IMG/VR virus record: IMGVR_UViG_3300043446_003867
Span: 1-64,000 of that record
Direction: 5' to 3' (one strand)
From: a virus
Length of the DNA: 64,000 nt
Below are positions 45,004 to 61,995 of the stretch, piece by piece; position 1 is the stretch's first letter; each line of letters begins with the position of its first letter. The translations under genes and the position numbers were made by a program. The notes beneath the pieces were generated by a model, which had not been told where the DNA came from, searched no databases, and saw only the letters and a program-made list of their open reading frames with translations.

Positions 45004-45251
45004 TTCGTTCGCTGAAAGTTCGCGCCGCGACGTGGCTCACGAAGCGATTGCTGAAGTTTTTGGCGTCGCAGACTGAGAAGGAAGTCGACGAGACGGAGGC
45101 GTTCCCGACGCCTCCGCAGTCGCCTTTGACGCAGGAATCTTGCGTGATGATGTACACGCCTCCCGCGCCGCGCGTTATGAAGACGGAAGCGGCGCCGCTC
45201 GCGGGTAGCGCGAGGGCGAGGGCGGAGCAGGCGCGAAAGAGGACCGTATGA
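45000..45251 (+). CDS. hypothetical protein
   Basis: 4-nt overlaps on both sides. Confidence 0.45.
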   Translation: MIRSLKVRAATWLTKRLLKFLASQTEKEVDETEAFPTPPQSPLTQESCVMMYTPPAPRVMKTEAAPLAGSARARAEQARKRTV

Positions 45252-47167
45252 GCAACGTGATGCAGATGGGCGCGAACTTGGTGATCGGTTCGTCGTTCGG
45301 GATCGACAACACGACCCTCGGGCCGGACTTCCGCGCGCGCACGCTGATCGATTCGGAACGTTACAAGGTGCTTGACCGCAAGGCGACGTACTATTCGTGC
45401 ACACAGCACGACTTCAAGAAGCACGACTTCGATGGTCGCGCGATTCCGGAAGGGAACCCGCTCCTTGGACAGCCGAATCTCGCGAGTGTTCAAGCCGATT
45501 GGTACGTACCGCTTCGCTCCCGACGACCGAGCGCCCCGTACCGTCTCGCTCGTGTCATCGTCGACTCGTTCACCAATCTCGTGTTCGGCTATCAGCGGTG
45601 GCCGACGATCCGTGTTCCTGGTGATAGCGATGCCGAAGAGTTCGTTCGCGCGCTAGTCGATGAGAGCGGGCTGCGCACGCTGATGATCCGTGCGCGAACG
45701 ATCGGAGGCTCGACGGGTAGCGTCGGGCTTTCGTGGCGGTTCTTCGCGGGCAAGCCGGTCGTGCAGGCGCACCAGCCGCGGTCGATCTACATTCACGAGT
45801 GGGAGGATCAGGATCGCCTGATCCCCGCGCACGTCATTGAGATCTATAAGTTCAGCCGCAACGAGTGGGATCCGCAGAAGCAAAAGTTCGTCGTGAACTG
45901 GTACTGGTTCCGGCGCGATTGGACGCTCAAGGCTGACATCACTTACAAGGAAGTGCGCTTCGATCAGGCGGTCGATCCCGAGTGGCAGATCGACGAGGAA
46001 GCCTCGCACGTTCACAACGATGGCTTCTGCCACTTCGTGTGGATTCAAAACCTCCCGACGGAGAACCCGGAGAGCATCGACGGCAACGCGGACTACGAAG
46101 GGCTCTACGAGAACTTCGACTCGATCGACTTGCTGCACAGCACGCTGATTCGCGGCACGACGTTGAACCTCGATCCGACGCTCGTGCTCAAGCTCGATCC
46201 CGACATCATCGAGCGCACGGGCTTGCGCAAGGGCACCGACAACGCGCTTGTTGTCGGGCAAGCAGGCGATGCACACTACATGGAGCTGCAAGGTTCTAGT
46301 GTTCAGGTCGGCACGCAGTTGTTCGCAAAGATGCGCGAAAGCACTCTCGAAGTCGCGCAGTGCGTCGTGCCCGACCCGAACCAGATTGGCGCGGCGGGTA
46401 CGTCCTCGGTGGCGTTGAAGGTCGTCTACGCGCCGATGCTTGGCAAGGCGGACATTCTCCGCGAGCAGTACGAACGCGGGTTGCTCGACCTGCTTACGCA
46501 GATGCTCAAGTCCGCGCGCAACGCCAACTCGAATCCGGTGATCCGCGAAGGTGAAAACGGCGAGATTGTCGAAGAACGTTACGTTCTCGATCTTCCGCCG
46601 CGGCTTGAGCGCCAAGATGTTCTCGACGACGAAGGGAATCCGACGGGCGAAAAAGAAGACGCTTTCGTCGATCAGACTCCGGGTGAAAGCAACCGCATCA
46701 CGTTTGACTGGGGCGATTATTTCCTACCAACGGCGCAGGATCAGCAACAAACGGCGACGACGCTTTCGCAACTCGTTGCCGGCGGTCTTCTCTCGCAAGA
46801 GAGCGGTGCTGATCTCGCCTCGCGTGTAGTCCGCATCGATCCGCGCGCCGAATGGGATCGTATTCAGCGCGAGCAGAAGGAAAAAGCGTCGCAGCAGTCG
46901 TCGATGTTTGGCGGCGATATGGGTGGTGCGCCACTTGGCGGCGATATGGGTGGTGCGCCGGAAGGCGCGGGCTTTGGTATCAAGGGCGGCATGGGTGGTC
47001 GCGTCGGTGCGGAGGACGAACTGCCACCGGGCGCGGAGCCGCGAAAGGCCGGAGCAAAGGCTCTGCGTGTGAATGAAGTTCGCGCGATGCTTGGGGAACC
47101 GTTGCTTGAAGGTGAAGAGGGCGATTTGACGCTGGAAGAGTATCGGCATCGGAAAGGGATCGCGTGA
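45248..47167 (+). CDS. portal protein (SPP1 gp6-like)
   Basis: size, position before the MuF-like gene, LARVIVD and SSVALK motifs. Confidence 0.8.
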   Translation: MSNVMQMGANLVIGSSFGIDNTTLGPDFRARTLIDSERYKVLDRKATYYSCTQHDFKKHDFDGRAIPEGNPLLGQPNLASVQADWYVPLRSRRPSAPYRLARVIVDSFTNLVFGYQRWPTIRVPGDSDAEEFVRALVDESGLRTLMIRARTIGGSTGSVGLSWRFFAGKPVVQAHQPRSIYIHEWEDQDRLIPAHVIEIYKFSRNEWDPQKQKFVVNWYWFRRDWTLKADITYKEVRFDQAVDPEWQIDEEASHVHNDGFCHFVWIQNLPTENPESIDGNADYEGLYENFDSIDLLHSTLIRGTTLNLDPTLVLKLDPDIIERTGLRKGTDNALVVGQAGDAHYMELQGSSVQVGTQLFAKMRESTLEVAQCVVPDPNQIGAAGTSSVALKVVYAPMLGKADILREQYERGLLDLLTQMLKSARNANSNPVIREGENGEIVEERYVLDLPPRLERQDVLDDEGNPTGEKEDAFVDQTPGESNRITFDWGDYFLPTAQDQQQTATTLSQLVAGGLLSQESGADLASRVVRIDPRAEWDRIQREQKEKASQQSSMFGGDMGGAPLGGDMGGAPEGAGFGIKGGMGGRVGAEDELPPGAEPRKAGAKALRVNEVRAMLGEPLLEGEEGDLTLEEYRHRKGIA

Positions 47168-48195
47168 AGCGACTCTCACAAGCGATGTTGATCGACCGAC
47201 GGCAAGCGTTCGCGCTTGCCGATCGCGTTGGTAAACGCGAAGTGGAGCGCATGATGAAAGATGCGGCGGACGAGCTACGCGCGCGCATCTCGTCCAACAT
47301 CGCGACAAGCAGCACGACGCCAACGTCGATTCGTGAAATGCGGGAGACGCTTGCGCAGCTTGAAGGCGTGACAAAGGCGCTATCGCGGCGGGTGGGACGA
47401 ACGACACTCGGGATGGCCGGTGAGGCGGCGGAAGTCGCGGCGAGTGCGGTGTTTGATTATATGGAGGACGCGAATCGCGCGTACATGGGGCGGCCGCTCG
47501 GATTGCGCGAAGCGAGCGTGCTCACCGAAGCAGTGTCCGGCACGAATGCGTCGGTACTTCGACGACTCGCGTCGACCGAGTCGCAGATCGAAGACGTGAT
47601 GGCGGATCCCGACGCAGCGGAAGTTGCACCGCGTATGAATGCGGAGGGCGGCGTGCTCTCGCGGTATTCAATGGAGACGATCGGTGTCTTTGAAGACACA
47701 CTTCGCAACGGCATGATCACGGGAAAACCGTGGGGTGACGTGCGGCAGGAGTTGATCGACAAATCGCCATTCCTGCAAGGCGCGCCGCGTTTCTGGGCGG
47801 AACGCATCATCCGTACGGAGACGATGACTGCTTACAATCGCGCGGGATGGGAGACGATTCGCGAAGCTGACGATGAGCTTGGCGACATGACGAAGATCCT
47901 GAGTGCGACGTTCGACAACCGGACGGGATGGGATAGCTACCAAGTTCACGGGCAGATTCGGCGACCCGACGAGGCGTTCCAGTGGGCAGGTGGGTTCTAT
48001 CAGCATCCGGCGAACCGCCCGAACGATCGCGAAGTCGTCGTACCGCATCGCATTTCGTGGCCGATCCCGGATGAATTGTCGTGGCGCAGCGACGCGGAAG
48101 TTGTCGCAGCATGGCAGCGGGATCGGAGGAAGGGCGCTCCTCCGCCGCGTCCGAAGATGACGACGATCGACTTGAAACGATTCGGACGCGGCTGA
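47164..48195 (+). CDS. MuF / SPP1 gp7-like minor head protein (short form)
   Basis: AERIIRTET..AYN, D.RT...HGQ, HPANRPNDR; no toxin extension. Confidence 0.85.
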   Translation: MKRLSQAMLIDRRQAFALADRVGKREVERMMKDAADELRARISSNIATSSTTPTSIREMRETLAQLEGVTKALSRRVGRTTLGMAGEAAEVAASAVFDYMEDANRAYMGRPLGLREASVLTEAVSGTNASVLRRLASTESQIEDVMADPDAAEVAPRMNAEGGVLSRYSMETIGVFEDTLRNGMITGKPWGDVRQELIDKSPFLQGAPRFWAERIIRTETMTAYNRAGWETIREADDELGDMTKILSATFDNRTGWDSYQVHGQIRRPDEAFQWAGGFYQHPANRPNDREVVVPHRISWPIPDELSWRSDAEVVAAWQRDRRKGAPPPRPKMTTIDLKRFGRG

Positions 48196-50067: not shown

Positions 50068-50895
50068 ATGAACGGTATGGACCAAGCCACCACCACCGAG
50101 GTCACGGGGACGCCCGTGACCGCATCTGTTTCCACGACGGGCACCGCGCCCGTCACGACTGCCGTTGGTACTGCTACGGGCGAGTCGTTTGCGACGAAGA
50201 AGGCCGAACCGGCGACCGCACAGGCGGCGGAACCCAAGGCGACCAAGCGCGCAACGAAGCTCTCGCTCTCGCAGCAGGACTTCAACGAACGCATCAAGCG
50301 CGCGAAGACGAGCGCGTTCAAGGATGCGTTCGGCACCGACGACGTCGATAGTATCAAGCAGCGTCTCGCTCGCGCCGAGGAGCTGGAGGCGCAAGCCGAG
50401 GAGGCGCGCGTCGCTCGTATGAGTGAAGTGCAGCGTGTGAAGTACGAAGCGGATCGTGCGCGCCGAGAGGCGCAACAGTATCGCGCGCAGGTTGAAGAGA
50501 TGCGCGAGCGCGAAGTGGTTCGCGATCAGCAGTCCTTCGTGGAGCGCGTTGCATCGCGACACGTCAATCCGGTTTACATGGAGGAGGCGTCGATCGCCTT
50601 CGCTCGTGAAGTCGCGAAGGCGGATCCCCGTGAAGTTGCTCGCTGGACTGAGAAGGACGTTAGCCGTTGGTTCGCGAGCTACGTCGCGAAGAAGCCCGCG
50701 TTCGCCGCGTCGCCGAACGCGCGTAAGATTGAGAAGAAAATCGCGAGCGCGCCCACGCCGCCGCCGCGCCCCGCTCGCCCTGCGACTCCGAGTGGGTCGG
50801 CGGTTCCGAGCAAGACGTTCAAGCCGGGTCAGCCGAACAGCATGACGCGCGAAGAAGCGCGAGCAGAAGCGAAGCGACGCGGTTACACTTGGTGA
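50068..50895 (+). CDS. putative capsid scaffolding protein
   Basis: coiled coil, low-complexity ends, directly upstream of the capsid gene. Confidence 0.65.
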   Translation: MNGMDQATTTEVTGTPVTASVSTTGTAPVTTAVGTATGESFATKKAEPATAQAAEPKATKRATKLSLSQQDFNERIKRAKTSAFKDAFGTDDVDSIKQRLARAEELEAQAEEARVARMSEVQRVKYEADRARREAQQYRAQVEEMREREVVRDQQSFVERVASRHVNPVYMEEASIAFAREVAKADPREVARWTEKDVSRWFASYVAKKPAFAASPNARKIEKKIASAPTPPPRPARPATPSGSAVPSKTFKPGQPNSMTREEARAEAKRRGYTW

Positions 50896-51016
50896 TGTTC
50901 TAACGTCGATGATCTCGACACCGACGCTCACGCTACGCTGGCGGTCAACAGCGGTTTCAAGCGACGGGCAGAGATAAGACGACATAAAGTCAGTCAGTCA
51001 GTCAGGAGAAAGATCA

Positions 51017-52405
51017 ATGCCTCTCGTTCTTGGTATTCCCCCCAGTGTTGTGAAGCTCGTGCAGGAAGGTCTGCTTGAGCGCGCGTTCCACGATGGCCTC
51101 TTCCCGGCGCTCCAGTACCGCCAGGAAGCGCTCGTCGAAGAGTGGCCGGCCAACACCGGCAACGAACTCTTCATGAGCCGTCCGGGCCTCCTCGCGCCCG
51201 TGACGAAGCCGCTCCAGCCGGGCACCGACCCGAGCCCGCAGGCGGTGAACTACGAGCAGTGGACCGCGGTGCTCAACCGCTTCAGCGGTACCATCGACAC
51301 GAACATGCCGACGAGCGCGACCGCTTCGTCGAACCTGTTCCTCCGCAACATCCACCAGCTGGGCCTCCAGGCTGGTCAGTCGCTCAACCGCATCCCGCGT
51401 AACTCGCTGTTCAAGGCGTACCTCTCGGGCCAGACGCTCACCATCGCGGCGGGCGTTGCGGGCGACACGACGATCCGCGTTGCGGCTCTCAACGGCTTCA
51501 CCACGGTCGTCATCCCGTCGTCGACGGTGCGTCCGGTCCCGGTGTCTCCGGCGACCCCGCTCACGGTGACGATCTCGGGTGTCACCGGCACCCGCAACGT
51601 CGTCGGCTTCACCCCGGACAACCCGGACGATCCCGATGGTCCCGGCACCCTTCAGCTCAGCGCGGCTCTCGGCGGCGCTGGTGTTGCGAACCGCGCTCCG
51701 GTCATCTCGTCGGCGGCTCCGCTCGTCATCCGCAGCGGTGGCGGCATCTCGGTCGACGCGCTCAACGCGGGTGACGTGTTCACCCTTCAGGACGCGATCA
51801 ACGCCGTCAACAAGCTCCGCCGCAACAACGTGCCCCCGCACGAGGACGGCTACTACCACGCGCACATCAGCCCCGACGGCAACGCGCAGGTCTTCACCGA
51901 TCCGGCGTTCCAGCGCCTCAACACCGCCCTCCCGGATTATCATATCTACCACGAGGGCTTCATCGGCACGATCGCCGGCATCATGTTCTTCATGAACACC
52001 GAGTCGCCGGATCGCAACAACGTCGGCACGCTCATCTCGACGGGTGCGAACTCGCTCTACGGCGAGGACATCGGTTCCGAAGTCGTCAACGCAGCGGGCG
52101 TCAACGTCGGCCGCATCCTCATCACGGGCCGTGGCGCTCTCTACGAGAAGTGGCTCCCCGGCACGAACTTCGTCTCTGAGGCTGGCATCACCGGCAAGAT
52201 GGGCGAGTTCGACATCGTCAACGGCGGCATCAACGTGCAGACGGAGCGCATCGACCTGATCCTCCGCGCGCCGCTGAACCGCCTCCAGGACACCGTGGCT
52301 GCGACGTGGCAGATCAGCACGTCGTTCCCGGTTCCGAGCGACATCACCTCGGGCACGGGTCCGGAGCGCTTCAAGCGCGCCGTCGTGATCGAGCACGCGC
52401 TCTGA
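51017..52405 (+). CDS. major capsid protein
   Basis: 462 aa, strong SD, strongly biased codons, follows scaffold, followed by a terminator. Confidence 0.8.
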   Translation: MPLVLGIPPSVVKLVQEGLLERAFHDGLFPALQYRQEALVEEWPANTGNELFMSRPGLLAPVTKPLQPGTDPSPQAVNYEQWTAVLNRFSGTIDTNMPTSATASSNLFLRNIHQLGLQAGQSLNRIPRNSLFKAYLSGQTLTIAAGVAGDTTIRVAALNGFTTVVIPSSTVRPVPVSPATPLTVTISGVTGTRNVVGFTPDNPDDPDGPGTLQLSAALGGAGVANRAPVISSAAPLVIRSGGGISVDALNAGDVFTLQDAINAVNKLRRNNVPPHEDGYYHAHISPDGNAQVFTDPAFQRLNTALPDYHIYHEGFIGTIAGIMFFMNTESPDRNNVGTLISTGANSLYGEDIGSEVVNAAGVNVGRILITGRGALYEKWLPGTNFVSEAGITGKMGEFDIVNGGINVQTERIDLILRAPLNRLQDTVAATWQISTSFPVPSDITSGTGPERFKRAVVIEHAL

Positions 52406-52419
52406 TCGTTGCGGTATAG

Positions 52420-52453
52420 AGAAGGGCGAGCCTCGAAAGGGGCTCGCTCTTTT
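52420..52453 (+). terminator. intrinsic terminator after capsid gene
   Basis: GGGCGAGCCTC-GAAA-GGGGCTCGCTC followed by TTTT. Confidence 0.85.
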
Positions 52454-52546
52454 CGTTAGAAGTCATGCTATTCATCGTGACGCAGGGTCGCCGTAACCTT
52501 CCCCGAGTGCCCCCCCTCGGAACGCATCGCGGCGACCCTGCACTTC

Positions 52547-53509
52547 ATGGGATGGTGCAAGATGCGGCAGACGTCATTGATTACATGGGCGCGAGCAACC
52601 AGCGGCTTCGGCGACAAGCGATCCGGCAAAACCGAGTTCTCGTCGCAACAGGCGTTGCAAACGTATTTGCGCCAGCATCCGAAGGCGGACGCAAGCAAGC
52701 ACTCCGTCGTGCAGCAAAAGCAGCAGCAGGCGCAGAAGGAAGAACCGTCTCGCAAGACTGCGCAGAGCCACGGGCATGCGGTCAGCGAGAAGGCGCGTGC
52801 GGAAACCAAGTCCAAGATCGAAACGCTCGCAAAGCAGGGGAAGGTCGCAGGTAGCTACGACGCGCTCCACAAAGAGGGCGTTGAGTTTTTGAAGAAGCAC
52901 GCGGCGGGTCTTCCGGCGTCGAAGTCGGCGCTCACGGAGTTGTCCGCAGACCTTGGCGGCAAGGTGTCGGGGCGTACGAAGGAGATCGATTCGGCGCTCA
53001 ACAAGGTTGTGCTGAAGCACAAGGGGAACGATCCGAGTCGCCCCGAGAAGGGTTACTCCAAGGTGTCGGAACTTGCGGACGGCGCGGGTCTTCGATGCAT
53101 TGTAAACTCACCGAAGGACGTGCTCACGGTCGTTGATCGGTTGAAGAAGGATCCTCGCTTTGAGAACATCTCGAAGGACGAGGAGGATTACATCACCAAG
53201 CCCAAGGGCGGGTATCGCTCGTACCACCTTGTCATGCGCGACAAGCGCGATGGGCTGTTGAAGGAATTTCAGATCCGGACGCCTCGGCAGAATACGTGGG
53301 GCGATTGGTGTCACGACGTCTACAAGCCGCAGAACGCGTTGCAGATGGCGACGATGAAGGATCCGCTCGCGAAGCGCGAAGTGCTCGCGTACGCCGAGAA
53401 GATGTCGGATCGTTACTTCGACATGGATAGCGGGAAGAAGCCGCGCGGGTCGGCACCGCCTTGTACGCCCGCCATCAAAAAGTCGTTCGGGTGTCTGCCC
53501 GATAAGTAG
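52547..53509 (+). CDS. RelA/SpoT-domain small alarmone synthetase-like protein with N-terminal extension (start uncertain)
   Basis: GRTK..DS...K, LADGAGLR, DYITKPK.GYRSYH, EFQIRT..Q..W...H..YK. Confidence 0.9.
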   Translation: MGWCKMRQTSLITWARATSGFGDKRSGKTEFSSQQALQTYLRQHPKADASKHSVVQQKQQQAQKEEPSRKTAQSHGHAVSEKARAETKSKIETLAKQGKVAGSYDALHKEGVEFLKKHAAGLPASKSALTELSADLGGKVSGRTKEIDSALNKVVLKHKGNDPSRPEKGYSKVSELADGAGLRCIVNSPKDVLTVVDRLKKDPRFENISKDEEDYITKPKGGYRSYHLVMRDKRDGLLKEFQIRTPRQNTWGDWCHDVYKPQNALQMATMKDPLAKREVLAYAEKMSDRYFDMDSGKKPRGSAPPCTPAIKKSFGCLPDK

Positions 53510-53520
53510 GAGCGAAAACC

Positions 53521-53754
53521 ATGGCTGACAAATCGTGGGTTGAGCGGTCGAGTGAAGCGATTGAGCGCTTCATGCCGAAGGCTGGCGAGGGGTTCAACGT
53601 CGTTGCGGTCGATGCGTACGAGGAACCCGGCGACGAGTTGTACCTAGTCGGTAACTTCGAGAGCGAAGCCGAGGCAGAGGAAGCGGCGGCAGCGCATACG
53701 AAGCGCAGCGGCGATAAGGCGTACGTGTACGCGCCGGAAACGTTGAGGCGTTGA
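53521..53754 (+). CDS. small acidic protein, candidate antitoxin/immunity
   Basis: SD AGGAG; directly downstream of the synthetase; role inferred. Confidence 0.55.
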   Translation: MADKSWVERSSEAIERFMPKAGEGFNVVAVDAYEEPGDELYLVGNFESEAEAEEAAAAHTKRSGDKAYVYAPETLRR

Positions 53755-53755
53755 G

Positions 53756-54598
53756 ATGCCACTCAAAAAGGGTTCTAGCGACGAAACGATTGGCGCCAAC
53801 ATCGGTAAGTTGGTCGGAGAAGGCTACCCGCAGAAGCAGGCTGTAGCGATCGCCTACAAGGAGGCGGGTCGCAGCAAGTCTGGTTCGGAATGCGTTGCGT
53901 GCTCGACGAAGAGTGCGCGTGGCAAGTGCGTGAAGTGCGAAAGCGGTCGCGGCGCTCTGGTGACGTGGGCTCGCTCGGTGAGCGGCATGGGTCGCAGTGG
54001 CAAGGCAGAGTTCTCTTCGCAACAGGCGTTGCAGAGCTACCTTCGCCAGCATCCGAAGGCTGACGCGAGCAAGCATAGCGTTGCGCAGGCGGCGACGAAG
54101 TCGGCTGCGCCGCAAGAGGCCAAGCCCGAGGTTCACCCGGAGTTTTCCAAGTTCGTCTCTACGCTGTACCCGGCTATTGCGGCGGGTCATCTATCCGGAC
54201 CCGATTCTCTGAAACTCATGGCGAAGCATCCGCACGCTCCTGCCGGGTTCGAGAAACATCTGGAGGGCGACGCGAGCAAGCATAGCGTGACGGGCGGAGA
54301 GCAGCCGAAACTCGCCGAGGCACGTCCGTCGATTAAGCGCGCGTCGACGAGTCGCTTTCAGGATCCGAAGGGGCCGATGAAGTGGCGGGCTGGCGACGAT
54401 TCTAGCAAGTACATTCACACGCTTGATGGAACGTACAATTGGACGCCTTCAACTGGGCATCTCTCGTTCATTTCAAATAAGAACGGGCGGCGCACCGTTC
54501 TTTCCAAGGATCTTAATCCACGGCGCACTGGCGGATTTCACGATATGAAAAACGAAGAGCAAGCCATGGAGCGCGTCAAGCAACACGCGAATAGGTGA
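53756..54598 (+). CDS. modular head-region protein
   Basis: MPLKKG...QKQAVAIA N-terminus; ~42-aa segment shared with the synthetase. Confidence 0.7.
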   Translation: MPLKKGSSDETIGANIGKLVGEGYPQKQAVAIAYKEAGRSKSGSECVACSTKSARGKCVKCESGRGALVTWARSVSGMGRSGKAEFSSQQALQSYLRQHPKADASKHSVAQAATKSAAPQEAKPEVHPEFSKFVSTLYPAIAAGHLSGPDSLKLMAKHPHAPAGFEKHLEGDASKHSVTGGEQPKLAEARPSIKRASTSRFQDPKGPMKWRAGDDSSKYIHTLDGTYNWTPSTGHLSFISNKNGRRTVLSKDLNPRRTGGFHDMKNEEQAMERVKQHANR

Positions 54599-54601
54599 GC
54601 C

Positions 54602-55693
54602 ATGGCCGGGAAGTACGACCACATCGACTTCAAGCCACCGTCATCCGTCGCGAACGCGGCGGAGCGCGGGCTTGAGTACCGCAAGAAGCAGGGCAAGGAC
54701 AAAGCCGGCTTGACGCAGAAGGAAGCGTCGAAGCAGGGCATCGGCTCTGGCGTTCAGCGCGCGTCGAACCTTAAGGGGCGGAGCAATCTGAGCCCCGAGA
54801 CGGTGCGGCAGATGGGTCGGTTCTTCTCGCGTCATGAGAAGAACGCGAAGATCGATGCGGAGCACAAGGGTGAGCCCTGGAAGGACAAGGGCTACGTAGC
54901 GTGGCTCCTTTGGGGTGGCGACGCTGGGCGGTCGTGGGCGAACAAGGTGATTCGGCAGATGGACGCTGCGGACAAGAAGTCGGGCAAGGGCATCGAGGAC
55001 GCGTGCTGGAAGGGCTACGAGGCGGTCGGCATGAAGACCAAGAATGGTCGGAAGGTGCCGAACTGCGTGCCGAAGAAGGGTAAGGGAATCCCCGACGCGC
55101 AGGAGCGCGCGGCGTTCGATATCCCTCTCGCTCGGTGGGCGAACGCGATGGGCGGTCGCGGCGTCGAGCTTCGCGCTCCGGCGGTGAAGCAGAAGACGAA
55201 CTACTCGTGCGGACCGGCGGCGCTTCGTTCGGGAATGGCGGCGCTCGGTGTCGGCGCGAAGGAAGACGAGCTAGCCGAGAAGGCGGAGACGAGCGCGAGC
55301 GGTGGCACGAGTATCCACGGGCTCGCGAAGGCGGCGCAGGCGTTCGATCTGGAAGCCGAGATCCGCGATGGCATGACGGTGGACGAACTCATGTCGTGCA
55401 TGGACGATGGGTGCGTGGTCCTCGTTTGCTTGCAGGCGGGCGACGACGCGGAGGATTACGATTCTTCGCACTGGGTGCTGCCGGTAGCGGTGAAGGACGA
55501 GGGCGGCGCTCCGATCGTCGAGTGCATGGACCCGAGCCGGAAGAAGGTTCACTCCGTGATGAAGCTCGACGAGTTCGAGGAGCGCTGGCACTGCGTCGAC
55601 ATGGGCAAGCCGGTCAACGGGCTCGCGCTCGTGATCCGCGGAGAGTCGCCGGCGAACATGACGCTGATCGACACGGCGAAAATGCCGATGTGA
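54602..55693 (+). CDS. N-terminal phage domain + C39-like cysteine peptidase
   Basis: Q.TNYSCGPAAL, GGTS...L, SHWV, MDP; N-domain with FFSRHE...AWLLWGG. Confidence 0.85.
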   Translation: MAGKYDHIDFKPPSSVANAAERGLEYRKKQGKDKAGLTQKEASKQGIGSGVQRASNLKGRSNLSPETVRQMGRFFSRHEKNAKIDAEHKGEPWKDKGYVAWLLWGGDAGRSWANKVIRQMDAADKKSGKGIEDACWKGYEAVGMKTKNGRKVPNCVPKKGKGIPDAQERAAFDIPLARWANAMGGRGVELRAPAVKQKTNYSCGPAALRSGMAALGVGAKEDELAEKAETSASGGTSIHGLAKAAQAFDLEAEIRDGMTVDELMSCMDDGCVVLVCLQAGDDAEDYDSSHWVLPVAVKDEGGAPIVECMDPSRKKVHSVMKLDEFEERWHCVDMGKPVNGLALVIRGESPANMTLIDTAKMPM

Positions 55694-55738: not shown

Positions 55739-56053
55739 ATGGCTCGTAAGCAACGCGAAGATAATCAGCAGGGAATCGCCGACTACTCGTACACGTCGCA
55801 GTCGTCGGCGGTGGAGATGGTCGACAACAGCGCCGAACTCATCGATCCCGCACCGATGGGCGGGACGGCGTACGAGGAGCGCGCGGCGATGCTCGCGGAC
55901 GTTCCGCCGATCAAGCAGTACCGCGTCGTTAGCGACGCTCTCGTGATGAACCGAGGCGCGCGCACTCTGCTCCGCGCCGGGAAGATCATCGACGGGGCGA
56001 ACTACGACCTGGAGCAGTTGAGCACGCAAGGCGTTCGGTTCGAGGAATACTGA
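55739..56053 (+). CDS. hypothetical virion-region protein
   Basis: SD GGAGG. Confidence 0.6.
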   Translation: MARKQREDNQQGIADYSYTSQSSAVEMVDNSAELIDPAPMGGTAYEERAAMLADVPPIKQYRVVSDALVMNRGARTLLRAGKIIDGANYDLEQLSTQGVRFEEY

Positions 56054-56235
56054 TGCCGTTCGAGGACGACGTCGCTAGCGTTCACTTGTTCGACGTTGGC
56101 GACGACGTTCTCGAATCAGACGTCGCGTACGATTCGGCAACGATGCTCGCGCTGCTCTGGTTCGCGGCGCGCTACGATGCAGCGATGGTGTCGGGCGCGG
56201 CGAACTTCATCATTCAGGAAGCGAGCGAGGGATAG
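56053..56235 (+). CDS. hypothetical protein
   Basis: TGATG coupling. Confidence 0.5.
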   Translation: MPFEDDVASVHLFDVGDDVLESDVAYDSATMLALLWFAARYDAAMVSGAANFIIQEASEG

Positions 56236-56238
56236 GCG

Positions 56239-56643
56239 ATGGCATTCAGCGAGCAAGAGAAGGTCCGGATCCGACATCACCTCGGCTACCTGAACGTCGG
56301 GCAAGCCTACACGTTCGTTGCTGGCGCTCCGGCGGGCGTTGAAACGCAGTTCCTCATTGAAGGTGCGATGCAGCGCGTGCTTCCCGAAGCCGAGACGTTG
56401 GCGAGGGAACTGCTCGCGCGGTGCGATTCGGTCGAAGGGCAGATGATGGACAACCAGGATCTGCTCGCGGTCGAGCAGGTCGATGAAATCAAGATCCGCC
56501 AGGACGAGTTCCAGGCGCTCTTGAAGCGGTATCACTACCATCGGAACGCACTGGCGAACGTCCTCGGCGTCTACCCGAACCCGTTCGACAAGCGTTTTGC
56601 GGCGGGGACCGGCGGTGGTATCAACGTCAACGTTCAGCACTGA
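56239..56643 (+). CDS. putative head-tail adaptor
   Basis: size, helical, position after the head genes. Confidence 0.5.
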   Translation: MAFSEQEKVRIRHHLGYLNVGQAYTFVAGAPAGVETQFLIEGAMQRVLPEAETLARELLARCDSVEGQMMDNQDLLAVEQVDEIKIRQDEFQALLKRYHYHRNALANVLGVYPNPFDKRFAAGTGGGINVNVQH

Positions 56644-56654
56644 GGAGAAGTTCG

Positions 56655-56924
56655 ATGTCCAAGATTGTGGTTCTCGCCCCGTTCAGCGCCGCTGTCAGCA
56701 GCGGTCCGCGTAAGTTCCTTCCCGGCGACGTGGTCGATAGCGACCAGTACAGCGCCGCCGACTACACGGCGATCACGTCGGCTGCTCCGACGAAGTACAC
56801 CGCCGCGTTCGACGCGCCGGCTCCCGCGCTCATCGCGGCGCAGGCGCAGGCGATCGAGATCCGCAACAACGGCGGTGATCCCGAGAACCAGACCGAGGGC
56901 ATCATGTACCGAGCGATGTTCTGA
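56655..56924 (+). CDS. hypothetical virion-region protein
   Basis: SD GAGGAG. Confidence 0.6.
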   Translation: MSKIVVLAPFSAAVSSGPRKFLPGDVVDSDQYSAADYTAITSAAPTKYTAAFDAPAPALIAAQAQAIEIRNNGGDPENQTEGIMYRAMF

Positions 56925-56953
56925 GCATCTAGGCGCCCCATAGCGCGACTTTT

Positions 56954-56988
56954 AGACGCGGAGCCTAACAGGCCCGCGTCTTTCGTTT
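56954..56988 (+). terminator. probable intrinsic terminator
   Basis: AGACGCGG...CCGCGTCT followed by TTCGTTT. Confidence 0.65.
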
Positions 56989-57029
56989 GAGCGGCTGACG
57001 TAGCGCCCGTGGAGCGCTACGCTGCGGTC

Positions 57030-57581
57030 ATGCCACGTCCGCACCCGCTGCAACCGTTCCAAGCCAAGATGACGCTCGCGAACCGGCTTCGGGGTCCGGC
57101 GGATCGCGTGCGGCAGATCGCGACCGACATGGGCGTGCGACCGTACCGCGTGTTCCTCGTGTGGACGACGTTCCAGGGCGAGGAGCGCGGCGAAGGCACC
57201 GAAGTCGAGTTGGCGCGCGTCGAGATTCTGCCGACGCCGAAGATCGGTGAGTTGACCAGCCTCGGCATGAACCCGTACTCGCAGGGTTTCGCGAGCACGG
57301 GCTCGCTTCGCCTTGAGAAGATCAGCGCGGGGTTCACGCAGCCGCAGCTCATGGGGCTCGAAGTGCCAGGGCGCGGGCAGCTTCCGAACATGCCTCGCAA
57401 CGTCGACTTCTGGTACGAGATGCGTGAGGACGGGCGCGGCGGCGATAAACCGGTGCCGCTCCGCTATCGCCTCGCATCGTCGCCGTATCGCGCGGCGGGA
57501 CGTGTCTCGTGGTCGGTCATGCTAGAACGGCAAGACGAGGCGACGCAGATGGATGGACAGCCGCCGTTCGCGTTGAGGTGA
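57030..57581 (+). CDS. putative head closure/stopper protein
   Basis: position in the neck module, beta-rich. Confidence 0.5.
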   Translation: MPRPHPLQPFQAKMTLANRLRGPADRVRQIATDMGVRPYRVFLVWTTFQGEERGEGTEVELARVEILPTPKIGELTSLGMNPYSQGFASTGSLRLEKISAGFTQPQLMGLEVPGRGQLPNMPRNVDFWYEMREDGRGGDKPVPLRYRLASSPYRAAGRVSWSVMLERQDEATQMDGQPPFALR

Positions 57582-57584
57582 ACC

Positions 57585-58103
57585 ATGGCGACCGTTATCA
57601 AACTCAGTGATGCGGCAGTCTACTTCGGCACGTCGGGTCCGGTGGCGGTCAAGCTGAAGACCGCGGCGCTCAAGGGGATCTACTCCGCCGCGCTTCGGTC
57701 GAAGCAGATTCTTCAAACGACCGAGATTCAGGATGCGGATCCTCCGCCGGTAAACAAGGGCGTCTATCGCGCTGGATGGCAGGTGGAGAAGCTGAAGAAC
57801 GGGGCGGCGTATTACAACAGCGTGCCGTACGCGCGATATATCGAGGACGGTGTGCCGGCGATGAACGTCGTCATGTCGCAGAAAGCGATCATGGCGATTG
57901 CTGAGTGGGCGCGTAGGAAGCTCGGCGGCTTGGACGAGAAGCAGGCGCTCAACGTCGCGTATGCGATCATGCAGAACCTCAAGAAGCGCGGTATTTTCAA
58001 ACACGGCGCGGGCTTGAAGATCATGAAGAAGTACAACGATCGGAAGCTCAACGAAGTCATTCGGCGAGAGATCGACGCTGAGATCGACAAGGTGAAGTTT
58101 TGA
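57585..58103 (+). CDS. HK97 gp10-like neck/tail completion protein
   Basis: PVNKGVYRAGW...NSVPYARYIEDG. Confidence 0.7.
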   Translation: MATVIKLSDAAVYFGTSGPVAVKLKTAALKGIYSAALRSKQILQTTEIQDADPPPVNKGVYRAGWQVEKLKNGAAYYNSVPYARYIEDGVPAMNVVMSQKAIMAIAEWARRKLGGLDEKQALNVAYAIMQNLKKRGIFKHGAGLKIMKKYNDRKLNEVIRREIDAEIDKVKF

Positions 58104-59005
58104 GCACGAAGTACTTAGACAATCCGATCGCATCGCCGCCGACGGTTACGCAGCGATACGGCGAACCGCCGTACCCGATGCTGCCGAATATCGACGCGCG
58201 CTCGCATGGGCTGCGTGTTCTCAGTCGATGGTTCTCGTCGCTCGTGTTCCGGCGCACCATGGCACCCAATCAAGAACCGGAAGCGTTCAGCGTCACGCCG
58301 GATCGAGTCTTCTACGAAATGCCCGATAGCGTCGAGATGCTGGAGTTCCCGGCGATTGGCGTTCTTCCGGGACGAGGGCAGTACATCACGCGTGGCATTG
58401 GCGGCGCGGATCCTGGCGAAGCGCGTGAGGACGGTTACTCGCTAAGTATCCCGTACGACTACCAGGAGATGTTGACGGTCGAGGTGATCGGCTCAAAAAT
58501 CGCCGAGCGGCGCGCGATGATCGCGGGTATCGAATCTGCGGTCGGATCGTACGAGGGCACGACCGACCTCCGCTTGGTGATGCCGGAGTACTACGGACTG
58601 GCGGCGACCTACTCGCTCATGGAACGCGAGAACCTGGAGGAGCCGGATTCGCCTCGCGGTCGTCGGCGCGGGCATTTGTTCATTCAAATGCTTGTGCCAG
58701 TCGTGACGCAGGCGCGGCTTGTAGAGTTCTTCCCGAGCGTTGACATCAACGTGTCGGGATCGATCGGCGCCGACGTGGGCGTCGGCTTCTTTCCGTCTAA
58801 GGTGGAGGCGGCGACGCTTGCCTACACTGGGACGCAGGCGCTCGCGGCGATGGGTCTGGATGTCTTTCAGGCGCGCACCATCGCCCGAGCTACGCTAGGG
58901 ATCAACAGATTGGAGGCGGACGCGCTGACGATCGACTATCTGGTTGCCTTGATGCAGTGGCTCGCGGCGAGGAATGCTACCTTGCGCACAGCTACGACCC
59001 CGTGA
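58100..59005 (+). CDS. putative tail terminator protein
   Basis: position before the sheath; TTGA overlap. Confidence 0.5.
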   Translation: MSTKYLDNPIASPPTVTQRYGEPPYPMLPNIDARSHGLRVLSRWFSSLVFRRTMAPNQEPEAFSVTPDRVFYEMPDSVEMLEFPAIGVLPGRGQYITRGIGGADPGEAREDGYSLSIPYDYQEMLTVEVIGSKIAERRAMIAGIESAVGSYEGTTDLRLVMPEYYGLAATYSLMERENLEEPDSPRGRRRGHLFIQMLVPVVTQARLVEFFPSVDINVSGSIGADVGVGFFPSKVEAATLAYTGTQALAAMGLDVFQARTIARATLGINRLEADALTIDYLVALMQWLAARNATLRTATTP

Positions 59006-59029: not shown

Positions 59030-61534
59030 ATGTCCGTTTTCATCCGTCGATTCACCTTTGACCCCGGCGTCCAAGTTTTTCTTGAGATCGAGGCGGTCAA
59101 CGTCCTGGACCTGACTCCGCCGTCGTCGATCACGGGTGTCGGCACTGGCACCGCAATGATCGTGGGCGAGTTCGAGGACGGGCCGTTCAACACGCCGCTT
59201 GAAGTCACGAGTGCGACGGAGCTTGCGAGCACGTTCGGCAACTTCGGTTACACGTACGGTGGCGTGACGGCGCAGAACCCCTGCGCTCGCGTGCGCTACG
59301 CCGATGGCGCAGTGGTTCCTGAGTACTGGAACGGTAACGGGCTCCTCGCGCTCAACGCGAAGCGCTTTTCCCGTCTCCTCATCACCCGCGCCGACACCAG
59401 CGTCGGCGTCGTTGACTTTGAGCGTTGCGCGTCGATCGTCGGTGGTTCGGCGTTCACCTACTCGCTCTCGCCGGCGCAGACGTTCATCTTTGGCACGGCC
59501 ACGGCGTCGTACACGGTGACGTTCAACGCGGCGGCGGCGACGCTCACCAGCGCGGCGGGCGTCTACCCGACGGGCTTCACGGGTGGCGAAGTGATGACGA
59601 TCGTTCGCGACGGCATCACGTATACGGTCGTCTTTCAGGCGAGCGATCAGACGCAGACGCAGGTAATCGACCGCATCAACGGCACGCTGGGCTACACGGC
59701 GGCGGTCAACGGCGGCGGTGGCGTTACCACGCTCTCGTCGCTCAATCGCGGTTCGGGCGCGACGATCGCGATCACCGCGCCGACGACGGCGTCGGTTCTC
59801 GCGGCGACTGGTTTCGTGATCGCGTCGGCGACGGGCACCGGCAACGTGTTGAACATCGCGGCGGTTACGGCGTCCGAGATTGCTTCGCTCGTCAGCACGG
59901 CCTCCGCTGGTGCGGTTGTGCTCACGCAGCTTGATAGCGGCGCGCTCCGCCTTGAGGGTATCGGCGCTCCACTCACGGGCGTGCTTCGAGTGACGGGTGG
60001 CACGGCGACCGCGGCGCTCGGCTTCTCGCTCACGCAGAACGCGGCGTGGCAAAATGCGCCGGTTGAAGTTGAGATCGACGCGATCGATGCGGGCGTCGCG
60101 GCGGCGCTCGGCTTCGCGGTTACGACGGCGCGTCCGGTGATCGTCAGCAGTGCGGGCGTTTACCCGACGGCGTTCGTCGGCGGTGAAGAGATGACCATCA
60201 CGGTTGCGGGTTCCGCGCCGAAGGTCGTCACGTTCCAGTCGACCGATCAGACGATCGCGCAGGTTGCGGCGCGTATCAACCTCACGCTCGGTTACACGGC
60301 GGTCGTTGCGCAGAGCGCGACGATCCTCGCGATGGCGGGCACGGGGCAAAGCAGCATCGCGATCCCGGCGGGCACGCGCGTTCGCAACGCGGGCGGCAAC
60401 GTGTGGGTCACGATGCAGACCCAGGCAGTCGACGCGGGCGCTCCTGGTCCGTACGCGCTCAAGGTTCGTCCTGCGACCGACGACGGCACGGCGCCTCTCG
60501 CGGCGGCGCTTTCGATCAACGCGCTCAGCTCGCCGTTGTTCGGTGCGGCGTTCATCGTGTTCAACCCGCTCCAAGTGAATGCGGCGTTGAGCGAGTCGGC
60601 GATCGATGCATCGTACACGGTGGCGATCGACTCAACGCTTAACAGCGCGTCGGTTGCGGCGGAGACGAACATCATCTGGTCGGCTCGCCAATCGAACGCG
60701 GTGCGCACGAAGCTCCGCCAGAACGCGAACGACGCGGCGTCTAGCGGCCTCTACGGACGCATCGCCGTGATTCGTCCGCCGCTCAAGACCACGAAGGCGC
60801 AGGCGCGTTCGGGCGCGGCGCAACCGGGCGTCGGCGCGTACCGCGACCAGCGCGTTGTGTACGTCTATCCGGGCGTGCAGACGTTCATTCCGGCGATCGC
60901 GACGATCGGCACTGCTGGCGGCGCTGGCTTTACGGCTGATGGCATCATTGACATCGGCGCTGACGGATTCCTCGCGTCGGTGTGTTCGCAGCTTCCGCCG
61001 GAGGAGAACCCCGGTCAGCTCACGACGTTCACGGGCGGCGCGCTCGGCATTGAGGCGGGCAACCCCGACGTGCAGAACCTCACGCTCACGGACTACAAGA
61101 ACTTCCGCGCTTCGGGCATCTGCGCGCCTCGCATGGATCTCGGGACGATGATCTTCCAGTCGGGCGTAACCTCGGTCGATCCGGCGGTCTACCCCTCGCT
61201 GCGCAACATCAACCGTCGTCGCATGGCGGACTTCATTCAGGACAGCCTTGCGATCGCGCTCAAGGCGTTCGGTAAGCAGCTCGCGACTCGCACGCGTCGC
61301 GCGCTCATCACTGGACAGATCAAGTCCTTCATGGACGGGCTGCTCTCGCCGAACAACAGTGCGGCGCAGCGCATTGAGGGCTACACGATCGACAGCGTGA
61401 GCGGGAACACCGCAGAAACGCTGGCGCTCGGGATCTTCCGTATCATCCTGAACGTCCGTACGATCGCCTCGCTCGACGCGATCGTGCTGCAAACGACCGT
61501 CGGCGAATCTGTGGACGTGTCTCAGACCGCGTGA
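59030..61534 (+). CDS. contractile tail sheath protein
   Basis: PGV...VGEFEDGP...FG N-terminus; INRRRMADFI C-terminal sheath motif. Confidence 0.88.
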   Translation: MSVFIRRFTFDPGVQVFLEIEAVNVLDLTPPSSITGVGTGTAMIVGEFEDGPFNTPLEVTSATELASTFGNFGYTYGGVTAQNPCARVRYADGAVVPEYWNGNGLLALNAKRFSRLLITRADTSVGVVDFERCASIVGGSAFTYSLSPAQTFIFGTATASYTVTFNAAAATLTSAAGVYPTGFTGGEVMTIVRDGITYTVVFQASDQTQTQVIDRINGTLGYTAAVNGGGGVTTLSSLNRGSGATIAITAPTTASVLAATGFVIASATGTGNVLNIAAVTASEIASLVSTASAGAVVLTQLDSGALRLEGIGAPLTGVLRVTGGTATAALGFSLTQNAAWQNAPVEVEIDAIDAGVAAALGFAVTTARPVIVSSAGVYPTAFVGGEEMTITVAGSAPKVVTFQSTDQTIAQVAARINLTLGYTAVVAQSATILAMAGTGQSSIAIPAGTRVRNAGGNVWVTMQTQAVDAGAPGPYALKVRPATDDGTAPLAAALSINALSSPLFGAAFIVFNPLQVNAALSESAIDASYTVAIDSTLNSASVAAETNIIWSARQSNAVRTKLRQNANDAASSGLYGRIAVIRPPLKTTKAQARSGAAQPGVGAYRDQRVVYVYPGVQTFIPAIATIGTAGGAGFTADGIIDIGADGFLASVCSQLPPEENPGQLTTFTGGALGIEAGNPDVQNLTLTDYKNFRASGICAPRMDLGTMIFQSGVTSVDPAVYPSLRNINRRRMADFIQDSLAIALKAFGKQLATRTRRALITGQIKSFMDGLLSPNNSAAQRIEGYTIDSVSGNTAETLALGIFRIILNVRTIASLDAIVLQTTVGESVDVSQTA

Positions 61535-61551: not shown

Positions 61552-61995
61552 ATGGCAACGAATGATCCGCGTCTCAGAGGGCAAGAAGTCGAGGTCCGTA
61601 TCGTCACGAACGGAACCCTTGAAAACAGCATCACGGCGGTCGCCACGTTTGAGGAAACCTTCAAGCTGGAGAAGAAGGAAGACGCCTTCCTCGGCGAGAC
61701 GAACAACCGTTACGATCACATCTTCCAGGGCATCGACGGTCGCATGGAGTTCCAGGTGAACTCAAACGACTGGATGATCTTCCAAAACGTGATCAAGGCG
61801 CAGGCGCAGCGCAAGACGCCGGGCACCAAGATCAACCTCACGCGCACCGACTACTACGCGAACGGGCAGACGAGCATCATCACGTACTCGGATTGCAAGT
61901 TCGGTCCTTCGCCTACCAGCGTCGCCGGACGCGGGGAGTTCGTGAAGGTGTCGCTCGACTTCTCGTGCTCGGATCGAGTTGAGCAGTTGAGCTAA
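61552..61995 (+). CDS. tail tube protein
   Basis: 147 aa, directly after the sheath, SD AGGAG. Confidence 0.75.
   Translation: MATNDPRLRGQEVEVRIVTNGTLENSITAVATFEETFKLEKKEDAFLGETNNRYDHIFQGIDGRMEFQVNSNDWMIFQNVIKAQAQRKTPGTKINLTRTDYYANGQTSIITYSDCKFGPSPTSVAGRGEFVKVSLDFSCSDRVEQLS

Follow-up and report, generated by a model that had tools for sequence, protein, structure and literature searches.

The described systems closest to the locus reported here, four open reading frames (ORF1 to ORF4) behind the major capsid gene in the IMG/VR virus record IMGVR_UViG_3300043446_003867, are the polyvalent proteins, the MuF toxins and the toxic small alarmone synthetases (toxSAS). In the main text of Iyer, Burroughs, Anand, de Souza and Aravind (2017, J Bacteriol, PMC5512222), polyvalent proteins include head-packaged RelA/SpoT effectors that are proposed to be processed by a peptidase and delivered with the DNA, and the peptidases listed there are zincin-like MPTase, assemblin-like, DD and LonC. 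MuF toxins are described with downstream immunity genes (Jamet et al. 2017, PMC5576092; Paulet et al. 2025, PMC12226406); for one of them, Apk2, the authors report the IapK inhibitor and the Aph1 hydrolase as immunities (PMC12226406). In toxSAS modules, a toxic small alarmone synthetase is described as paired with a protein antitoxin (Jimmy et al. 2020, PMC7229694; Dominguez-Molina et al. 2024, PMC11782079). The record analyzed here is 89,081 bases long and 97% complete according to CheckV, and the window is its first 64 kb (64,000 nucleotides). A first-pass annotation of the window had read the four ORFs as an effector system independent of MuF, in which a synthetase is loaded into heads, processed by a C39 peptidase and injected into the host. 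We find a synthetase with a conserved partner gene, a leader behind which enzymes are exchanged and a peptidase that accompanies this leader, and we weigh what they may do together.

A synthetase with a conserved partner gene

The synthetase domain of ORF1 covers residues 142-259 (Pfam RelA_SpoT PF04607, E 2.3e-16, 60.5 bits against a cut-off of 27) and is the only Pfam family above cut-off in the protein. As the first-pass annotation had claimed, there is no HD hydrolase; regulatory domains of the long RelA/SpoT homologs are absent too. Fourteen homologs share the invariant residues R143, K145, S149, K153, D178, G181, R183, Y223, R224, H227, E240, Q242, T245 and H256, which align to the same motifs in RelP/RelQ; by name and role we take these to be the synthetase motifs RxK...S...K, DxxGxR, YRSxH, ExQxRT and H. 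A C-terminal stretch, ...CHDVYKP...PPCP...FGCL, is also common to the 14 homologs and is specific to this subfamily. When a profile of these homologs was searched against the PDB, the best scores fell on RelP/RelQ-type (p)ppGpp synthetases (E 3e-22 to 4e-17), followed by long Rel/RelA enzymes (E 1e-16 to 1e-13) and the tRNA-modifying enzymes CapRel (E 2.5e-10) and FaRel2 (E 7.6e-7); the (p)ppApp synthetase Tas1 was unmatched at E<=1. ORF1 is very probably an active synthetase. We infer that it is a nucleotide pyrophosphokinase making (p)ppGpp-type alarmones, with an acceptor that is not readable from sequence; the Apk2 authors report that they failed to switch specificity through motif swaps (PMC12226406). 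Indirect hints at such a product are the nearness to RelP/RelQ and an HD_4 hydrolase gene beside the pair of synthetase and partner genes in the IMG/VR locus L009. Assignment of ORF1 as an ortholog of NCBIfam YjbM or spoT_relA was rejected because the matches lie far below the equivalog cut-offs.

The first-pass annotation was right about the reading frame and probably wrong about its start. A start at 52562 (MRQTS...) is likelier than one at 52547, because of the database gene call P0001 and because leader-bearing homologs all begin M-R/K-x-x-x-L-x-T-W-A.

The small acidic ORF that had been noticed 11 nucleotides (nt) after the synthetase gene is ORF2 (Table 1). A word-based search returned only three close relatives. 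ORFs located 3' of distant ORF1 homologs in two IMG/VR loci (L005 and L007) and in Pro-Nvie1, a provirus of Nitrososphaera, looked like ORF2 by eye, and for gp7 of Pro-Nvie1 membership in the ORF2 family was found by hhalign (97.5% probability, E 5.5e-12). When 1.84 billion cluster representatives were then searched with a profile of six sequences, 314 proteins were retrieved at E<=1e-3, 118 of them at E<=1e-10; proteins of this family are about 70 amino acids long. Most of the 150 best representatives (125) are no longer than 120 amino acids, and none of the 150 contains a synthetase domain. An aromatic-x-aromatic pattern is present in 59 of 61 family members, as Y[IVL]Y in 32 of the 61. The family has no Pfam counterpart, and weak matches to SPOR occur in only 2 of the 61 members.

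The AlphaFold2 (AF2) model of ORF2 has a predicted local distance difference test score (pLDDT) of 90.5 and the order alpha-beta-beta-alpha-beta. Foldseek against the PDB gave nothing at E<=0.001. With VIA-align the best matches were mevalonate kinase and a Caulobacter protein solved by nuclear magnetic resonance, with ClpS, SPOR and RRM-like chains tied below, and Tis1 (6OX6) was absent among the matches listed in the fold search. ORF2 was not assigned as a pZFD, ClpS-like or SPOR domain because the best Z was only 4.5-4.6.

To define the pairing of the two genes, loci were fetched from IMG/VR with ORF2-type alignments only and then searched with the synthetase profile. In 9 of the 10 loci an ORF1-type synthetase gene (E 1e-56 to 1e-95) directly adjoins the ORF2-like gene, in support of the first-pass pairing of the synthetase with the small ORF; two of the 10 loci, L010 and L011, are near-duplicates. 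The synthetase gene lies upstream and on the same strand in eight of the nine, and overlaps or gaps do not exceed about 60 nt except in L014. The tenth locus (L099), which lacks a synthetase, has a marginal ORF2-like match (tblastn E 9e-5; hidden Markov model E 2.4e-4, in two pieces) and was counted as a miss. Among the five loci found through the synthetase (L001, L005, L006, L007 and L008), three have the partner gene. A scan of IMG/VR with ORF1 as a single protein gave no match, whereas the alignment-based scans did find loci. ORF2 as the cognate partner of the synthetase is thus a well-supported reading of these gene neighborhoods.

The pair is also present in L005, in L007 and in Pro-Nvie1, the archaeal provirus. 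The capsid gene lies upstream of the pair in the window; in Pro-Nvie1, as deposited, the portal gene is upstream and protease/capsid genes are downstream. Downstream of the pair are the portal gene in L005, a head maturation protease gene in L007 (E 2e-38) and protease, scaffold and capsid genes in L014. No homolog of ORF3, ORF4 or the MuF, portal, capsid and scaffold proteins was found in the pair-carrying loci at E<=1e-2, so only the pair is common to these loci and the window phage. Proteins of 551-840 amino acids made of repeated small modules end in the synthetase domain in L005, L007, L012 and L013, an architecture that makes them polyvalent proteins as Iyer et al. (2017) use the term.

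Some further arrangements were observed in these loci. Two tandem synthetase paralogs (319 and 291 amino acids) precede one ORF2-like gene in L014 (L014:3574-5396), and a long protein with an N-terminal ORF2-like domain is encoded directly 3' of the synthetase gene in L012 (L012:1754-3130). The three-gene set of L009 (L009:5348-7127) recalls the FaRel and Apk2 systems with two immunity genes, and a DUF2201 metallopeptidase/VWA protein is encoded close by. In L005, a contig of an Acidimicrobiia metagenome-assembled genome, the portal gene is apparently interrupted (L005:11948-15104): an 805-amino-acid ORF matches a portal PHROG at 331-433 only and is followed by a 249-amino-acid continuation. 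Judged from the translations, this looks like intein insertions.

A portable leader with exchanged enzymes behind it

The leader of about 50 amino acids in ORF1 and ORF3 consists of an LxxWAR tag and then a module of about 30 amino acids ending in HPKADASKHSV (the KHSV module). The tag is amphipathic, a glycine-rich turn lies between the two parts, and the module follows the pattern ...F-S-x-x-A-L-x-x-Y-L-x-x-HPKADxSKHSV. The tag pattern [LIVM]xxWA[RNK]xx[SG]GxG occurs at four sites in the 89-kb genome, all of them in coding + frames, against 0.013 expected; in 300 residue shuffles the maximum was one site. Between ORF1 and ORF3 the KHSV module is about 90% identical at the DNA level, and the tag peptide is kept though its codons differ. 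Because the codons have diverged while the peptide is kept, selection appears to act on the tag peptide.

The first-pass annotation had seen a shared peptide in the two proteins encoded after ORF2. For ORF3 this holds over the leader, with 63% identity between its residues 61-121 and residues 4-66 of ORF1 (BLASTP, E 2e-22); ORF4 shares the 12-residue tag only (pairwise BLAST E 2). ORF3 is modular: a phrog_2423 module (residues 1-44, E 4.8e-16) is followed by CxxC...CxxC, the tag at residues 68-79 (53957-53992), the KHSV module, a second ...DASKHSV and a C-terminal part for which the atlas search gave no lead. The second KHSV-module copy is shortened and lies at 54251-54289 of the window.

The fourth tag forms the C-terminal end of a hyper-acidic protein encoded beyond the window (Table 1). 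This protein has SGEGDDEDEE repeats and a basic tail of GKMGY repeats, and its gene stands between the presumed tape measure and baseplate-hub genes. It has no PHROG match. A homolog in L109 (E 1.9e-21) is cut by the end of the locus.

A database search with the 51-amino-acid leader found four proteins at E<=0.01, namely ORF1, a partial call of ORF3 and two topoisomerase IB proteins. The wider spread of the leader was found with degenerate DNA patterns for the tag and for the KHSV module. The tag pattern matched three loci. Two of them (L103 and L105) were dropped as off-frame chance matches in G+C-rich DNA, and the other (L106) is a sister contig, G001, whose portal is 94% identical to that of the window phage, its capsid protein 98-99% and its terminase 74%. 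The gene directly after the capsid gene in G001 encodes the same leader and then a topoisomerase IB like P0007 and P0008, which carry PF01028. Homology between the window and G001 (92%, blastn) spans 50806-52709 of the window and stops at the last codon of the leader. The capsid protein of G001 appears as two overlapping ORFs (314 and 140 amino acids; G001:980-2334) where the window has a single gene for 462 amino acids, the result of a frameshift or a sequencing error.

The KHSV-module pattern returned eight further loci (L108-L115). In L112 the leader is followed by Topoisom_I (E 9.5e-37), and in L108, L109 and L113 it stands on long helical or low-complexity proteins. In L110, L111, L114 and L115 the module occurs alone, at the N terminus, internally or repeated in unrelated phage proteins, often with a ...V-x-A-R-F... 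element before it that resembles the tag. A recurrent short form of the module reads ...F-x-[ST]-x-E-A-L-x-x-Y-L-x-x-H-P-[KG]-A-D-x-x-[KN]-H-x-V. The point at which homology with G001 breaks off, together with the different proteins behind the leader in relatives, indicates that the leader is a portable unit and that the enzyme behind it is exchanged. The peptide first noticed as a shared motif is thus real, and different enzymes follow it at the same place in sister phages. Such a leader probably serves as a trafficking or processing signal.

A C39-like peptidase that accompanies the leader

ORF4 matches Peptidase_C39 (PF03412) above the cut-off of 22 bits, with 32.8 bits (E 6.9e-8) in one search and 34.3 bits (E 1.2e-9) in a second, and the C39 peptidase of the first-pass annotation is therefore upheld. 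It also matches DUF3335 (PF11814, 27.1 bits against a cut-off of 25), and its neighbors in the atlas are C39 and C39_2 clusters, several of them mostly viral. Q197, C203, H290 and D310 are invariant in five C39 homologs that are 43-89% identical, and from the roles known in the C39 family we take these to be the putative catalytic residues. ORF4 has no ABC domain and so is not part of an ABC exporter, its peptidase domain being joined instead to modules associated with phage heads; no metallopeptidase Pfam family matches ORF1-4 at E<=0.1, and neither the whole protein nor its C39 part has a sequence match in the PDB. The homolog with the same architecture is encoded on a metagenome contig of 1.6 kb (L095) and is 89% identical.

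In all five homologs the C39 core comes immediately after a tag of the form L-x-x-W-A-[NS]-A. What lies upstream of the tag is unrelated among them: the N-terminal domain of ORF4, a phrog_2423-like module as in ORF3, or a short tail. Three of the loci with the KHSV module (L108, L109 and L113) are relatives of the window phage (capsid protein E 1e-252 or better), and each encodes a C39 homolog 3' of the capsid gene and a leader-bearing protein nearby. The C39 gene lies directly 3' of the capsid gene in L108 and after one ORF of 174 amino acids in L109. This co-occurrence of C39 peptidases with leader-bearing proteins argues for a functional link between the two. We read ORF4 as recognizing or cutting the tag, possibly including its own release, and it may cleave the tagged proteins, a tentative proposal.

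The N-terminal helical domain of ORF4 is widespread in phages. It matched 95 IMG/VR loci, of which 80 were kept, and none of the 80 matches ORF4 past residue ~171. Among 10 carriers of this domain that were tested, it is fused to Phage_capsid_4 in three and to Peptidase_S78_2 in two (L017 and L020); other partners are AAA_33, DUF6582 and DUF5824. The fusions to prohead proteases and capsid proteins tie the domain to the interior of the head. A fold search with it gave nothing at Z>=5.5. A small module, CWKGYE...G-x-K-V-P-N-C-V-P, occupies residues ~124-170 (54971-55111 of the window); it matches 13 ORFs of the fetched loci, which are not carriers of the N-terminal domain, and several PHROGs of unknown function.

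Genome and locus layout

The late region is of myovirus type according to PHROG and Pfam matches, and the locus lies where the first-pass annotation had placed it, between the capsid gene and the neck genes (Table 1). The MuF-like protein has no second Pfam domain above cut-off, in line with its first description as a short form, and ORF1 has no MuF domain; the system thus does not depend on a MuF fusion, as proposed.

Table 1. Coordinates of the locus, its parts and the surrounding late genes. Positions are those of the window unless stated; aa, amino acids.
Feature	Position	Strand	Evidence or comment
Large terminase	39490-41130		
Portal	45248-47167		
MuF-like head protein, short form	47164-48195	+	Phage_Mu_F, E 4.1e-8, residues 176-287 of 343
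Major capsid protein	51017-52405	+	phrog_1357 major head protein, E 2.8e-18; borders the locus upstream
G+C-rich hairpin then TCTTTTCG	52425-52455	+	3' of the capsid stop codon; terminator- or attenuator-like
Four-ORF locus	52547-55693		between the major capsid gene and the connector/sheath genes
ORF1, predicted small alarmone synthetase	52547-53509	+	320 aa; likely true start 52562; PF04607
ORF1 N-terminal leader	52562-52709	+	LxxWAR...SGFG tag and ...EFSSQQALQTYLRQHPKADASKHSV module
ORF2, synthetase partner, candidate inhibitor/immunity protein	53521-53754	+	77 aa; acidic, isoelectric point 4.53
ORF3, modular protein	53756-54598	+	280 aa
ORF4	54602-55693	+	363 aa
ORF4 N-terminal helical domain	54602-54991	+	residues 1-130; AF2 pLDDT ~90
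Tag LARWANAMGGRG	55127-55162	+	directly before the ORF4 peptidase domain; motif scan
C39-like cysteine peptidase domain	55178-55588	+	PF03412
Small connector-type ORFs	55739-59005		weak Neck1/tail-completion match at 57585-58103
Sheath	59030-61534		
Tube	61552-61995		
Hyper-acidic protein	genome 65065-65643		192 aa; 1,065 bases beyond the window; LAAWARSMGGMG tag at the C-terminal end
Four tag sites			ORF1 residues 10-21; ORF3 68-79; ORF4 176-187; last 14 residues of the acidic protein

Within the locus the intergenic gaps are 11, 1 and 3 nt from ORF1 to ORF4. A Shine-Dalgarno-like GGAG, GAGG or AGGTG precedes every downstream start, and two of these sites overlap the previous stop codon. The hairpin behind the capsid gene is followed by a T-rich run and is kept in G001; it was read from the sequence, and a program scan gave the same stem on the - strand only. 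Given this hairpin, the locus probably receives attenuated late transcription. Searched with blastn against 50,697 phage records, the whole locus had no match at the DNA level.

Elsewhere in the window, a fibre-like protein of 663 amino acids is encoded at an odd position between the terminase and portal genes (42669-44660). It has repeated matches of 27-39% identity to a protein of 1,266 amino acids (genome 78176-81976) and matches tail-fibre and baseplate PHROGs. A T4-type lysozyme (PF00959, E 1.8e-39) is encoded on the - strand at 35118-35504, within an otherwise + strand array of small cassettes; Amidase_2 and SLT have no match in the genome.

Proposed mechanism and alternative explanations

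We tentatively propose that the head module harbors a polymorphic leader-cargo locus, whose products include a cognate inhibitor and a peptidase dedicated to it. The N-terminal leader of about 50 residues would be a portable address behind which different enzymes are joined. Here the cargo would be a RelP/RelQ-like small alarmone synthetase, and in sister phages a topoisomerase IB or a long helical protein. ORF2, translationally coupled to the synthetase gene, would bind the enzyme and most likely silence it in the cell that builds the virions. An inhibitor role for ORF2 is rather likely by analogy with IapK, Tis1 and the toxSAS antitoxins. While heads are being assembled, ORF4 most likely recognizes or cuts the tagged proteins. 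Once processed, the synthetase would be carried in the head and, in a new cell, would make (p)ppGpp-type nucleotides from ATP and shift the physiology of the host. For the delivery of proteins in virions the case is evenly poised.

Several observations weigh against this proposal. On the side of the synthetase, the nearest solved relatives of ORF1 are housekeeping enzymes, and toxicity is not a given. The pair precedes a family-A DNA polymerase gene in L010 and L011, away from head genes, and is also away from head genes in L009, where the synthetase gene is convergent and a SpoT-type HD_4 hydrolase gene (E 3e-12) stands before the ORF2-like gene. Because the pair also occurs outside head modules, it is not intrinsically virion cargo. 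The effector system first proposed is partly supported, by the gene pair, the independence from a MuF fusion, the leader, the link to the peptidase and the head-related fusions of the N-terminal domain of ORF4.

On the side of the partner, 17 of the 150 best ORF2-family representatives are proteins of 200-790 amino acids in which the ORF2-like domain is always N-terminal (P0036 and P0044 are examples of such long proteins), and 2 of 10 long family members tested have a PI3/PI4-kinase-like domain, which is unusual for a plain immunity protein. The ORF2 model has no convincing solved fold (no VIA-align match reached Z>=5). Its only alignment to CapRel falls on the antitoxin region (residues 277-347) and gave Z 3.4 and a root-mean-square deviation of 3.9 over 58 residues, which is within noise and tied with unrelated chains.

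On the side of the peptidase, the C39 part of the AF2 model of ORF4 has a pLDDT below 50, too poor for catalytic geometry, and only residues 1-130 are usable. The tag before the peptidases of L109 and L113 lacks GxG, and the tag of the acidic protein has only two residues after it, where a cut after GxG would do little. A simple rule of cutting after GxG is weakened by both. ORF4 has no match in G001; this contig, 27% complete, breaks off within the topoisomerase gene and is uninformative on the peptidase.

A stronger form of the proposal seems doubtful to us. It would have the locus represent an undescribed, dedicated cargo system in which the bipartite leader sends interchangeable enzymes to the interior of the capsid, the tagged C39-like peptidase matures them and may double as the prohead protease, and the ORF2 family is a new and widespread class of synthetase inhibitors. 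As part of this, C39 maturation of leader-bearing proteins would be a viral counterpart of double-glycine leader processing.

The pair could instead be an unpackaged toxin-antitoxin or exclusion module, like gp29/gp30 of mycobacteriophage Phrann or toxSAS, which acts within the infected or lysogenic cell to block competing phages or arrest the host and for which the place in a late operon is incidental. The two genes are tightly linked, as they are in the toxSAS operons described in PMC7229694, and the synthetase domain of ORF1 matches the PADLOC candidate defense family PDC-S33 (E 1.2e-17). The occurrences outside head modules, beside the HD_4 hydrolase gene in L009 and by the DNA polymerase gene in L010, fit such a module, and the arrangement in L009 recalls the three-gene FaRel operon reported there (PMC7229694). 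We nevertheless consider this explanation unlikely. In the window the pair lies inside a structural operon, behind the hairpin of the capsid gene, and in relatives the synthetase is the C-terminal domain of multi-module proteins of 550-840 amino acids encoded beside portal or protease genes. The leader of ORF1 moves as one unit to other enzymes, among them topoisomerase IB, that do not serve as toxins in toxin-antitoxin systems, and the partner gene is downstream of the synthetase gene, as in polymorphic toxins.

It is improbable, too, that nothing is injected and that ORF1 is a late host-takeover enzyme regulated by ORF2, with ORF4 as a prohead maturation protease that replaces the serine protease and the tag as its docking or cleavage site. 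None of the prohead-protease families S78, S78_2, ClpP (S14), S49 and S77 was found in the genome at E<=1, although this absence proves little because many phages have none. The N-terminal domain of ORF4 takes the same position in the S78_2 prohead-protease proteins (L017 and L020) and in the capsid fusions, and the peptidase gene lies 3' of the capsid gene in four relatives. In the motif scan of the genome, however, the capsid and scaffold-like proteins have no tag, and the tagged proteins are enzymes and the acidic protein rather than components of the shell. On cleavage this explanation overlaps with the leader-cargo locus that we propose; the two differ only on injection.

That ORF4 is a cell-wall peptidase (a virion-associated lysin or endolysin) or a host-directed effector protease, with the tag a recombination scar or linker, is very improbable: the stretch around its catalytic cysteine does match PHROGs labeled endolysin (phrog_6007, E 2.5e-6; phrog_1519, E 1.1e-3), papain-like folds include cell-wall peptidases and polyvalent proteins are described as often bearing wall-degrading domains (PMC5512222), but the genome has a separate T4-type lysozyme, the best families for ORF4 are C39 and C39-like, and the tag peptide is kept despite diverged DNA and keeps its position before the peptidase core in homologs that are 43-48% identical, which argues for selection on the peptide and not for a scar.

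To our knowledge, it is only in a few model phages that the choice of proteins for packing into the head and delivery alongside the DNA is understood. If the leader-cargo locus works as proposed, a portable leader with its own peptidase would offer a testable rule for how cargo is selected and a means to load foreign proteins into laboratory phage capsids. If the enzyme is delivered at infection, phages would themselves trigger the chemistry of the host's stringent response at the onset of infection. As a candidate for a new protein that inhibits or regulates RelA/SpoT-type enzymes, the ORF2 family is of wider interest, and its link to one synthetase subfamily extends from bacterial phages to the provirus of Nitrososphaera.

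Comparison with known systems

Like the polyvalent proteins described by Iyer et al. (PMC5512222), the locus has a RelA/SpoT domain encoded within the late and head genes and accompanied by many small modules. Unlike them, its parts are split over four genes: ORF1 is the leader and one enzyme, and ORF3 and ORF4 are short chains of modules. The peptidase of the locus is C39-like and thus outside the four superfamilies listed in that article, and no zincin-like MPTase is among the Pfam matches of ORF1-4 at E<=0.1. Neither a conserved small partner of the synthetase nor the LxxWAR/KHSV leader is mentioned for polyvalent proteins in the main text of PMC5512222, on which the architectures in its supplement may bear.

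With the Apk2-type MuF toxins the locus shares a conserved N-terminal part, a swappable C-terminal enzyme and a small ORF downstream, and the HD_4 gene of L009 may be compared with Aph1 as a possible second immunity. In contrast to MuF toxins, ORF1 has no Phage_Mu_F domain, and the conserved N-terminal part is the leader. ORF2 and its family have no detectable likeness to inhibitors of the Tis1/IapK type in fold searches, and the sequence of ORF1 is nearer to (p)ppGpp synthetases. Exchange of cargo behind a conserved leader would resemble the way polymorphic toxins are built, except that the N-terminal part is new.

The toxSAS modules (PhRel, FaRel, FaRel2 and CapRel) likewise combine a small alarmone synthetase without hydrolase and a tightly linked gene for a small protein. 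The beta-beta-alpha-beta core of the ORF2 model and its conserved C-terminal tyrosines recall the pZFD antitoxins as described in PMC11782079, whereas the ORF2 motif is YxY rather than YXXY and its fold matches the CapRel pZFD only weakly (Z 3.4). The context of virion genes and the cargo leader also differ from a chromosomal defense operon. Compared with classical prohead proteases, ORF4 belongs to another clan and shares only its N-terminal domain with S78_2 fusion proteins.

Double-glycine leaders are cut by the C39 domains of bacteriocin exporters, and the classical leader ends in GG. The locus resembles them in having a short N-terminal leader that ends in glycines and a gene for a C39-family peptidase close by (TIGR01193 match, E 0.0055). 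It differs in that there is no ABC transporter, the motif is LxxWAR...GxG, the tag is also internal and C-terminal, and cleavage is here a prediction.

In the article texts covered by our literature search, neither the ORF2 family nor the LxxWAR/KHSV leader is described, and no C39-like peptidase is reported from the head module of a phage. Packaged and processed effectors, MuF toxins with immunity genes and toxic synthetases with antitoxins are already in print. New are the partner family with its linkage to one synthetase subfamily, the bipartite leader with its exchange of cargo, and the pairing of this leader with a C39 peptidase.

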